IMG/VR virus record: IMGVR_UViG_3300018494_000461
Strand: one strand, 5' to 3'
Origin: a virus
Length of the DNA: 20,608 nt
The notes under the pieces were generated by a model that saw only the letters and a list, made by a program, of their open reading frames with translations, ran no database searches and was not told the origin of the DNA. Positions 1,127 to 2,298 of the stretch are shown here, piece after piece (position 1 is the first letter of the stretch; each line of letters starts with the position of its first letter). The position numbers were made by a program, and so were the translations under genes.

Positions 1127-1528
1127 TTATTCCACTCTATCTTCATATAAGGTGAGGCCGCATTCTCCAGATTCGGGGAACCACTCGCAAATAGAAGTGA
1201 TTTTACCATCATAATCAGTGAAAATAACATATTCCATTCCGTCACTCATTACGAGGAAATATGTCCAACAAGCGCACCTATACTCTTGGAGCATAAACAC
1301 ATCGGGAACGTGTGCAAGAACTGTGCCAATAAAATCTTCATTCCCAATTCTCGGACCAATCATATCCTCTAAAATGAGAATAGCGTTTTCGTTAAGGTCG
1401 GGAATGGATTCAACAATTGTTTCCGTAGACGATGGGGTTTCTTCATAAGGGGTGTCGCAAGCAATAAGTGATACACAAAGGCAAATTGCCAAAACAAAGC
1501 AAATAAAAAGTTTAATCGCTTTCTTCAT
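1127..1528 (-). CDS. Predicted lipoprotein, 133 aa
   Basis: N-terminus MKKAIKLFICFVLAICLCVSLIAC has a signal peptide and a lipobox (LIAC). RBS AAGGAGAAGTGA. The ATG overlaps the Sir2 stop (ATGA). Confidence 0.7.
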   Translation of the reverse strand: MKKAIKLFICFVLAICLCVSLIACDTPYEETPSSTETIVESIPDLNENAILILEDMIGPRIGNEDFIGTVLAHVPDVFMLQEYRCACWTYFLVMSDGMEYVIFTDYDGKITSICEWFPESGECGLTLYEDRVE

Positions 1529-2298
1529 TTCACTTCTCCTTCGGGAATTTCAATTAAATTGAAGACATCTTGAATATCTTCATGGAAGACCAGCTCAGCT
1601 CTGAAATCTGCTACTGTAGGGTCTCTGTTAATGACAACCAGATGACTATCATCGCAGTAGAATGGCAGGCTTGCGGCAGGTTGAACTACCAGGGAGCTAC
1701 CAACCACAATCATCAGGTCGGCTTGAGCAGCTGCCACCTGGGCATTGCTCCAAGCAGGAAATGCCAGCCCTTCACCATACAGGACAATATCGGGTCGGAT
1801 AGTGCCTTCGCCGCACAGAGGGCATTTAGGAATATCATTTAGATTATTGTAGTTTCCATCCAATACATCTTCTGGAATAAACAAGTCGTGACCACAATCC
1901 TGGCAATACCAACGACTCATAGTACCGTGGACAGCATATATCCTATCCATGCCAGTGTCTTCGTGTAAACCATCAATATTTTGTGTAATCACAGACACTT
2001 TTCTTGCTTCCTGCAGCTCAGAAATTCTTTGATGGGCGATGGTTGGCTTAGCTCCACGAAAATCCATTTTTTCACGCAGATACTCGAAAAAAGCCTGTTC
2101 GTGCTTCTGAAGGCAGGTGCTGCTCAGCATATATTCCGGACTCTTGCCTCCAATATACGGACTTGCGTACAGACCATCCGCACTGCGGAAATCCGGAATA
2201 CCGGAGCCAGTTGAGATACCGGCTCCGGTAAAAAACACGATATGCCGAGCGTCCGCAATTATCTTATTTAGTTTCGCAATACGCTCATTAAAATCCAT
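1525..2298 (-). CDS. Sir2-family NAD+-dependent protein deacylase (sirtuin), 257 aa
   Basis: GAGISTGSGIPDFRS, QNIDGLHE, HG, and a Cys4 zinc module CQDCGHD...CPLCGE. RBS GGGAGAG is 7 nt upstream of the ATG. Confidence 0.9.
   Translation of the reverse strand: MDFNERIAKLNKIIADARHIVFFTGAGISTGSGIPDFRSADGLYASPYIGGKSPEYMLSSTCLQKHEQAFFEYLREKMDFRGAKPTIAHQRISELQEARKVSVITQNIDGLHEDTGMDRIYAVHGTMSRWYCQDCGHDLFIPEDVLDGNYNNLNDIPKCPLCGEGTIRPDIVLYGEGLAFPAWSNAQVAAAQADLMIVVGSSLVVQPAASLPFYCDDSHLVVINRDPTVADFRAELVFHEDIQDVFNLIEIPEGEVK

Follow-up and report, generated by a model that had tools for sequence, protein, structure and literature searches.

Sirtuins are already known from phages, and so is the rebuilding of NAD+. 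Phage sirtuins (PHROG 2162; PMC5107563; PMC9503650) occur in KVP40/phiSt2, T5-like, rV5-like and SPO1-like Bacillus phages, large phages that also carry NAD+ synthesis genes. Those of Vibrio phages have been reported without the zinc site, and recycling of nicotinamide by the phage NAMPT was already suggested for phiSt2 (PMC5107563). Phage NAD+ reconstitution has been central to the conflict between phages and bacteria since 2024, with the NARP1, NARP2 and NARP3 pathways and the accessories Adpp and RyDEP, and in both characterised cases the genes found between Adps and Namat are functional parts of the pathway. Here, we describe a sirtuin gene in a 20,608-nucleotide stretch of viral DNA (IMG/VR record IMGVR_UViG_3300018494_000461; the whole stretch is called the window below). 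The sirtuin is an ordinary enzyme in itself, and the interest lies in its context: together with a YqeY-family gene it sits inside what its sequence identifies as a NARP1-type NAD+ reconstitution locus, in which NAD+ synthesis from ADP-ribose pyrophosphate (ADPR-PP) is putative.

The locus has in common with NARP1 and its extended forms (NARP1-AP, with the macrodomain protein Adpp, and RyDEP) the Adps and Namat homologs, a Poa1p-like macrodomain gene beside Namat, and the presence of inserted genes. Unlike NARP1, it inserts a sirtuin and a YqeY protein, adds a nicotinamidase, NadE, NADAR and an NMNAT-like protein, and encodes a Namat homolog with a tryptophan for the catalytic histidine. The Adps-like and Namat-like homologs are five genes apart, with four genes between them. 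The window operon also brings together the same three activities as the cellular CobB-PncA-Prs set of E. coli and Sir2-Pnc1 of yeast; E. coli Prs binds and stimulates CobB. In E. coli the genes are scattered, with cobB located between nagK and ycfZ, whereas those of the phage form one predicted unit, and the phage Prs-like protein is a member of the Adps family, not a genuine phosphoribosyl pyrophosphate (PRPP) synthase. Unlike the earlier phage sirtuins, the window protein is canonical and embedded in an NAD+ operon. The literature searched, which did not cover all journals, yielded no case of a canonical sirtuin and YqeY placed between Adps-like and Namat-like genes with a nicotinamidase alongside. 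What is new is the wiring of the sirtuin into an NAD+-rebuilding operon, conserved and phage-specific.

The window encodes a complete, canonical sirtuin

The sirtuin open reading frame (ORF) begins with ATG and fills its interval exactly, stop codon included (Table 1). A plus-strand reading of the same interval is ruled out, its translation being broken by many stop codons. The original prediction had placed a complete, phage-borne Sir2 catalytic core here; its coordinates and motifs were borne out, and the strand, which it had left unstated, is minus. The protein matches Pfam SIR2 (PF02146) over profile positions 1-180 of 180 (E 9.2e-45, 153.2 bits, cut-off 24) and PHROG 2162 ‘Sir2’ (E 4e-36), and passes the cut-off of the NCBIfam equivalog NF001752, ‘NAD-dependent protein deacylase’ (253.7 bits, cut-off 221), while all other NCBIfam sirtuin models scored under their own cut-offs. 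PF02146 is its only sirtuin-family match in Pfam; one other match, to TPP_enzyme_M, was under its cut-off. All of the motifs quoted originally are present. The NAD-binding motif GAGISTGSGIPDFR spans residues 25-38 (nucleotides 2185-2226) and TQNIDGLHE residues 105-113 (1960-1986), the catalytic His124 lies within AVHGT (1927-1929), and the four zinc ligands C132/C135/C159/C162 are contributed by CQDC (residues 132-135, 1894-1905) and CPLC (residues 159-162, 1813-1824).

A homolog search with the sirtuin returned thousands of sequences, of which the best 120 are 53-98% identical and come mostly from metagenomic contigs. Across 27 aligned phage homologs there is little or no variation in the NAD+ motifs, H124-G125, the zinc cysteines, the ‘LYGE’ loop or ‘GSSLxVxP’. 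The same residues of the NAD pocket, the His/Asn pair, the zinc Cys4 site, ‘LYGE’ and ‘GSSLxVxP’ are invariant across 80 cellular homologs, and substitutions of the catalytic His or Asn are found in neither group; the protein does not belong to a degenerate clade. The changes that set the phage clade apart lie at the periphery (G24T, V28I, E96Q, Q113E and W183 are examples). Related loci from homolog contigs are numbered with an L below, L177 being the continuation of the window's phage. The pairwise ratio of nonsynonymous to synonymous substitution (dN/dS) against the orthologs in L001 and L004 is 0.105, compared with 0.08-0.09 for the phage sigma factor and 0.07-0.12 for the RNA ligase.

The AlphaFold2 (AF2) model of the sirtuin, with a mean predicted local distance difference test (pLDDT) score of 92.1 and a predicted template modelling score (pTM) of 0.89, shows a Rossmann and zinc-ribbon fold. 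Its top Foldseek matches in the PDB are Sir2Af2 of Archaeoglobus and Sir2Tm of Thermotoga (E ~1e-22, TM scores 0.79-0.88, 33-38% identity), which are also the best matches to solved proteins by sequence (E 8e-42 and 3e-36, respectively); both are biochemically characterised deacetylases. The sirtuin is very likely an active enzyme.

With these class-U/Bacillota CobB-type deacetylases the protein shares its size, single-domain build, NAD+ motifs, catalytic His and Cys4 zinc site. Its closest cellular relatives, at 40-47% identity, are from gut and rumen Bacillota (Lachnospiraceae, Oscillospiraceae, Erysipelotrichaceae and others, including gut Clostridia). It differs from the cellular deacetylases in being phage-encoded, in belonging to a clade of its own (members at least 53% identical) and in having NAD+-salvage and YqeY neighbours. 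A neighbour-joining tree of 151 distinct sirtuin sequences, calculated without support values, placed the window's clade as a long monophyletic branch among cellular Bacillota-type sequences; lacking support values, this tree cannot decide between one and two sirtuin acquisitions by two YqeY-linked phage groups.

Three other sirtuin types were considered and rejected. A Tyr-x-x-Arg dyad in SIRT5 and CobB holds the acyl carboxylate in succinyl and malonyl recognition. The Tyr and Arg of CobB ‘FYNAR’ align to F71 and L74 of the window sirtuin, which is 28% identical to CobB and was not assigned to the class III desuccinylases (E. coli CobB/SIRT5). Defence-type SIR2/NADases (ThsA, DSR1/2, SIR2-HerA and pAgo-SIR2) were dismissed on a single-domain architecture, no PADLOC match at E<=0.01 and no SIR2_2 profile match, and no HerA, TIR or pAgo gene lies near the sirtuin in the window or in related contigs; an NADase or defence-type function is thus unsupported. 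Neither does the protein belong to the divergent proteobacterial-phage clade, being 25-28% identical (E 1e-6 to 1e-9) to the sirtuins of KVP40, T5-like, rV5-like/Phapecoctavirus and Yersinia jumbo phages; by sequence identity it is nearer to the cellular deacylases. The hallmark pairing of SirTM is absent as well. In SirTM-macrodomain pairs both genes likewise lie in one locus, but here the macrodomain gene is three genes downstream of the sirtuin, past a terminator and a promoter and in a separate unit, the sirtuin is of the canonical deacylase type, and no GcvH-L, lipoyl-carrier or LplA-type partner occurs in the window or in related contigs.

The sirtuin gene is predicted to share a transcription unit with YqeY and NAD+ genes

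The ORFs of the window are densely packed on the minus strand. Between them recurs a 35-nucleotide element with the consensus TTGATTTTTATAAAAAAATATG(T/A)TATAATATATAT, of which seven copies at <=3 mismatches were found, all on the minus strand (19471-19505, 16003-16037, 14596-14630, 12010-12044, 10787-10821, 4487-4521 and 1061-1095), against 0 expected from 100 shuffles; a looser eighth copy lies at about 7105-7139, also minus. The element has the form TTGATT, a 17-nucleotide spacer, TGnTATAAT and then ATATAT, and usually stands right behind a terminator hairpin. These repeated promoter elements and terminators would split the region into short units. The element comes close to the sigma-70 consensus, which suggests that the host RNA polymerase transcribes these units. 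The phage's own sigma-70-family factor is encoded at 11067-11987, in one of the promoter-bounded units.

The promoter assigned to the sirtuin unit comes directly after the terminator of the MVP-like gene upstream, with the nicotinamidase-like gene next in line. Within the unit, the gap between the Prs-like and YqeY genes is 18 nucleotides and that between the YqeY and sirtuin genes 3 nucleotides, the Shine-Dalgarno sequence of the sirtuin (GGGAGAG) lies within the 3' end of the YqeY gene, and the sirtuin stop codon overlaps the start of the following ORF by 4 nucleotides (ATGA). Because promoter and terminator bracket genes with such tight or overlapping junctions, a single predicted mRNA for the nicotinamidase-like protein, a small ORF, the Prs-like protein, YqeY, the sirtuin and a lipoprotein-like protein is supported, and with it the proposal, made at the outset, that the sirtuin is co-transcribed with YqeY and NAD+ enzymes.

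Table 1 Features of the window, listed by position (aa, amino acids; bp, base pairs; nt, nucleotides)
Feature	Position	Strand	Basis or remark
Namat-like (NAMPT-family) gene, N-terminal 261 aa, cut by the window edge	1-785	minus	491 aa in the source contigs
82-aa ORF	790-1038	minus	Conserved in relatives; in the unit after the promoter at 1061-1095
Second exact promoter copy	1061-1095	minus	Predicted start of the next unit (82-aa ORF, then Namat-like gene)
Intrinsic-terminator-like hairpin, 13-bp stem and T run	1096-1124	minus	Predicted end of the PncA-to-Sir2 unit
133-aa protein, lipoprotein-type signal peptide (lipobox LIAC)	1127-1528	minus	Last gene of the unit
Sirtuin, 257 aa, canonical class-U/Bacillota CobB-like	1525-2298	minus	Profiles, motifs, AF2 model
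YqeY-family protein, 172 aa, all-helical	2302-2820	minus	Profile and AF2 model
Prs-like protein, 275 aa, phage ‘ribose-phosphate pyrophosphokinase’ family including Adps	2839-3666	minus	phrog_619, E 8.4e-76
Small ORF, about 64 aa	3659-3853	minus	Between PncA-like and Prs-like genes; overlaps the Prs-like start
Nicotinamidase-like protein (isochorismatase family, PncA-like), 196 aa	3877-4467	minus	Pfam Isochorismatase, E 3.6e-24
Promoter element TTGATTTTTATAAAAAAATATGTTATAATATATAT (-35 TTGATT, 17-nt spacer, extended -10 TGTTATAAT)	4487-4521	minus	Predicted start of the sirtuin unit
RNA ligase (RNA-repair-type set)	7819-9237	minus	phrog_968, 4e-68
Thg1 (RNA-repair-type set)	12450-13340	minus	phrog_4717, 3e-83
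cREC, cyclic-phosphate processing receiver (RNA-repair-type set)	18639-19022	minus	PF20274, 5e-18
Exonuclease, phosphoesterases and nucleotidyltransferase (RNA-repair-type set)	9846-10754, 13487-14227, 15106-15996, 16471-17358	minus	

The first product of the unit, the nicotinamidase-like protein, also matches phrog_19305 (E 1.5e-31), and its best NCBIfam match is nicotinamidase/pyrazinamidase, under the cut-off. Inspection by eye revealed D11, D52-x-H54, H71-C and a C-terminal GxCxxxCV, the Asp/Lys/Cys and metal motifs typical of nicotinamidases. Its predicted substrate is nicotinamide, at once product and inhibitor of sirtuins, which it would turn into nicotinic acid. The Prs-like protein matches Pfam Pribosyltran (4e-9), stays under every NCBIfam Prs cut-off and is matched by tblastn in 1489 phage records, ICP1, Felix-O1-like and Kay-like phages among them. 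Adps, an ADP-ribose pyrophosphokinase, is a member of this Prs-like phage family (Osterman et al., bioRxiv 10.1101/2024.02.11.579819). The small ORF between them has a counterpart at the same place of 67 residues in L001 and of 79 in L178.

The YqeY neighbour scores 27.0 bits against Pfam PF09424, exactly the cut-off of 27, and E 2.4e-9 against phrog_1460. Its AF2 model (pLDDT 91.8) finds YqeY structures as the best PDB matches (8xje, 1ng6 and 8xjg; probability 1.0, TM scores 0.54-0.72). Homologs are detectable in 642 sequences; the best 120 are 74-94% identical, and nearly all of those listed carry a precomputed PF09424 match. The dN/dS of the gene is 0.09-0.16. PHROG 1460, the phage YqeY family, is annotated ‘tRNA amidotransferase’. 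Relatives of the YqeY fold, namely the tail of GatB and the C-terminal domain of D. radiodurans GlnRS, bind tRNA (PMC1865053, PMC2811023).

The linkage is conserved and phage-specific

A megablast comparison of the whole window with deposited phages gave no match; only metagenomes have yielded this lineage. At least 22 contigs, which measure 0.2-1 Mb and come from four collection blocks, carry the exact sirtuin sequence. Contigs of 132-293 kb, IMG/VR viral contigs among them, preserve the gene order PncA, Prs-like, YqeY, Sir2, Namat-like, macrodomain, NadE, NADAR, with sirtuins of only 57-66% identity. A more distant group (L018, L020-22), with a sirtuin of 43% identity, has the order NADAR, Sir2, YqeY, Thg1, MVP-like, PncA, Prs-like, Namat-like, macrodomain, NadE; Sir2 and YqeY are adjacent here too, in reversed order. 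In further viral contigs YqeY is missing, and a related sirtuin is linked to PncA, Prs-like, Namat-like, macrodomain, NADAR and NadE genes.

We compared viral and cellular sirtuin loci. An NAD+ gene lies <=6.5 kb from the sirtuin in 23 of 80 viral loci and in none of 80 cellular ones (Fisher p 4e-8), a p value that overstates independence, the viral loci being related to one another. None of the 80 cellular homologs shares the NAD+-salvage/YqeY context. Thus, the gene linkage is conserved and phage-specific. Two narrower expectations failed. A sirtuin beside NAD+ genes is not the arrangement of the cultured Bacillus phages JL and KLEB27-3, and the idea that phage YqeY always stands beside a sirtuin is refuted by L173-L175 (MT837447, MT837194 and MT837347), fragments of human-gut phages of about 7 kb with YqeY homologs and no sirtuin or NAD+ genes nearby on those short pieces. 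An iterated YqeY hidden Markov model run over 169 loci found YqeY only in two related jumbo-phage groups.

NAD+ genes downstream of the sirtuin unit

The unit that follows the sirtuin unit leads into the Namat-like gene. The fragment encoded in the window is closer to the crystallised Namat of SpbetaL1 (PDB 9W5X/9W5W, PMC12774641; E 8e-44) than to NAMPT (1e-22). Alignment of the window fragment and of L001 placed a tryptophan at the phospho-histidine position (‘SASWLLSF’/‘SMGWLLSF’ for Namat ‘SGAGHLLSF’). A motif search of 18 related loci found the same Trp in nine more, the site being unreadable in the others, L001 included, for which the Trp rests on the alignment. The Namat-like protein of the L001 type (L001 11525-13282) has an insert of about 90 residues and a further 11 residues inserted between the two clamp aromatics. 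That of the window's phage (L177 7701-9176) is of the 491-residue type also seen in the distant group, which indicates that the locus is a mosaic.

The genes after Namat-like in the source contigs encode a 168-residue macrodomain protein, NadE, NADAR, an AAA_28 kinase and an NMNAT-like nucleotidyltransferase, followed further downstream by phosphoesterases, a polynucleotide kinase (PNK)-like kinase (AAA_33) and a Band_7 protein. The PDB matches of the macrodomain protein are DarG-type macrodomains and Poa1p, with OARD1 matched weakly, and it has no Pfam Macro match. In L177 (7701-12512) the toolkit of nicotinamidase, Adps-like, Namat-like, Poa1p/DarG-like macrodomain, NadE, NADAR, AAA_28 kinase and NMNAT-like genes, more complete than is usual, fits within about 9 kb; AAA_28 is the Pfam family of the ribosylnicotinamide kinase domain of NadR. 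Several unrelated viral contigs have PncA and NadE alongside the Adps/Namat pair, a combination that hints at a route through deamidated intermediates. A full ‘deamidated NARP1’, in which PncA would make nicotinate, the Namat-like protein would join it to ADPR-PP and NadE would amidate the product, was not adopted, as the Asp of the DFGFRG/DFSMRG motif is retained; this residue is presumably the one that specifies nicotinamide in NAMPT (human D219).

A probable lysine deacylase coupled to NAD+ recycling

Among the functions first proposed for the sirtuin, deacylation is best supported by its sequence, because of the equivalog-level score shared with cellular deacylases and the conserved residues of the acyl-lysine channel. 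We infer a deacylase rather than another NAD+-dependent transfer, and a protein lysine deacylase coupled to the NAD+-handling neighbours is the reading that we regard as probable. A lineage of large gut phages would have taken the gene from Bacillota-type cellular sirtuins, and purifying selection would keep it. Expression would probably be early and by the host RNA polymerase, from a strong sigma-70-type promoter, on one mRNA with the nicotinamidase, the Adps-like protein and YqeY. The enzyme would be a deacetylase or short-chain hydrophobic deacylase that accepts uncharged acyl groups only, and not a desuccinylase.

The proposed reaction would turn NAD+ and acyl-lysine into nicotinamide, O-acyl-ADP-ribose and free lysine. 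The nicotinamidase would clear nicotinamide, the product inhibitor, and the downstream macrodomain protein could de-esterify O-acyl-ADP-ribose to ADP-ribose, while the Adps-like and Namat-like proteins, together with NadE and the NMNAT-like protein, would rebuild NAD+. Once de-esterified, the products of the sirtuin would be the two substrates of the Adps/Namat pair, and deacylation could run NAD+-neutral at the cost of ATP. The phage could in this way deacylate during infection without draining an NAD+ pool that it otherwise guards against host NADase immunity. Candidate targets would be acylated host or phage proteins, including the Prs-like partner and translation components reached via YqeY. 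There are precedents in the literature. Nicotinamide inhibits CobB, and activation of Acs by CobB runs 8.5-fold faster when PncA is added (PMC5734772); Adpp and RyDEP, both encoded by genes inserted in NARP1 operons, have been shown to be accessories of the pathway.

A number of observations weigh against this coupled deacylase. A nicotinamidase on the same mRNA competes with a Namat-type enzyme for nicotinamide, so that the loop does not hang together completely; a route by way of nicotinate and NadE may be used instead. With no phospho-histidine, the Namat-like protein is of uncertain activity. The case for the macrodomain protein as an O-acetyl-ADP-ribose deacetylase is modest, given the weak OARD1 match and the missing Pfam Macro match noted above. 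Conservation of the substrate cleft is no proof that the substrate is lysine, and in a region rich in RNA-repair genes and with tRNA-binding YqeY-type domains a nucleic-acid substrate fits equally. The relatedness of the viral loci in the count of NAD+ neighbours belongs on the same side.

In this locus a widespread lineage of gut jumbo phages has placed an NAD+ consumer and a YqeY gene at the position of the NARP1 accessories, probably co-transcribed with a nicotinamidase. Should the sirtuin be a deacylase, phages would alter the lysine acylation of host or viral proteins during infection, with the NAD+ cost covered by a recycling loop of their own, and the locus would offer a tractable entry to the role of phage sirtuins, which has long lacked an explanation. 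Should it act with YqeY on tRNA, this would be a new sirtuin activity.

Alternative activities

The alternative that survives best, though we think it unlikely, is RNA repair. The sirtuin, targeted by YqeY, would act with NAD+ on a phosphate of damaged tRNA or other RNA, removing or modifying it, as a KptA/Tpt1-like 2'-phosphotransferase or an RNA-end ADP-ribosyltransferase, in partnership with the RNA ligase, Thg1, cREC, a kinase and phosphoesterases, while the macrodomain, NADAR and NARP1-type genes would recycle the ADP-ribose by-products. Iyer et al. 2022 (PMC9503650) proposed the same for most phage sirtuins because tRNA ligase, cREC, nucleotide kinase and calcineurin-like phosphoesterase genes stand in their neighbourhoods. 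The window does contain an RNA ligase, Thg1 and cREC (Table 1), two Metallophos/calcineurin-like phosphoesterases, a nucleotidyltransferase and an RNase T-like exonuclease, with the PNK-like AAA_33 gene downstream; no tRNA gene was found in it. However, these repair genes lie 5-17 kb off and in other transcription units. YqeY-type domains help GatB and a GlnRS to bind tRNA, the rearrangement in the distant group puts the still-adjacent Sir2 and YqeY genes beside Thg1, and Poa1p-like macrodomains act on the ADP-ribose-1''-phosphate (ADPR-1''-phosphate) that comes from tRNA splicing. Against this, the window sirtuin stands outside the divergent proteobacterial-phage clade for which the idea was put forward, passes the deacylase equivalog cut-off and keeps every peptide-cleft residue of its cellular homologs. 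The proposal is also itself a prediction, and no sirtuin with this activity demonstrated was found in the literature searched.

A variant that joins the two lines of thought, and to which we give still less credence, would make Sir2 and YqeY a two-protein accessory of NAD+ reconstitution that acts on tRNA or another nucleic acid, removing a 2'-phosphate or an acyl or ADP-ribosyl mark placed by a toxin, with the by-product passing through the macrodomain protein into Adps/Namat. If true, it would add a new class of sirtuin substrate and a third kind of NARP1-inserted gene after Adpp and RyDEP.

Less likely still than RNA repair are roles as a decoy or feeder and as a SirTM-like enzyme. In the former, which we judge very improbable, the sirtuin would be an NAD+-centred counter-defence accessory that works without deacylation, either as a decoy or inhibitor of host SIR2/TIR effectors or by converting a host NAD+ derivative to a NARP1 substrate, like Adpp and RyDEP. 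Its place between the Adps-like and Namat-like genes is where both characterised NARP1 accessories are inserted, and genes of two types known to act against defence, NADAR and macrodomain genes, are present in the island. A decoy, however, needs neither invariant catalytic residues nor a dN/dS of about 0.1 over the whole protein, and nothing supports the counter-defence decoy that the original prediction had entertained; nor is there similarity to defence SIR2 proteins among the PADLOC profiles. As for a feeder, we know of no sirtuin reaction that gives free ADP-ribose from an immune signal.

Some canonical sirtuins show weak ADP-ribosyltransferase activity. A SirTM-type protein ADP-ribosyltransferase that modifies a host or phage protein for takeover, with the macrodomain protein as eraser, is nevertheless the least probable reading: sirtuin-macrodomain pairs are known from phages and bacteria (PMC9503650) and a macrodomain gene does lie downstream in the source contigs, but it follows the Namat-like gene in the next unit, the position of the NARP1-associated phosphatase Adpp, the lipoyl-carrier or LplA-type partner is missing, and the sirtuin, with its catalytic His and zinc site intact, is nearest to bona fide deacetylases in sequence and model.

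Other features of the locus

The MVP-like gene upstream of the sirtuin unit (4560-7076, minus) has a promoter-terminator unit of its own and encodes an 838-residue protein. This protein matches Pfam MVP_shoulder (E 2e-23) and contains a Vault_3 repeat, and its tail is a long, charged coiled coil; PHROG, NCBIfam and PADLOC gave no match. Such a gene is unusual for a phage. It is found in the window's phage and in L018, L020-22 and L177-L179, and is absent from L001, L004 and L006.

The lipoprotein-like protein encoded at the other end of the sirtuin unit has no family match in Pfam, PHROG or PADLOC. Its gene, translationally coupled to that of the sirtuin by the ATGA overlap, is missing in L006 and kept in the closest relatives, and it might be a moron-like or superinfection-exclusion gene.

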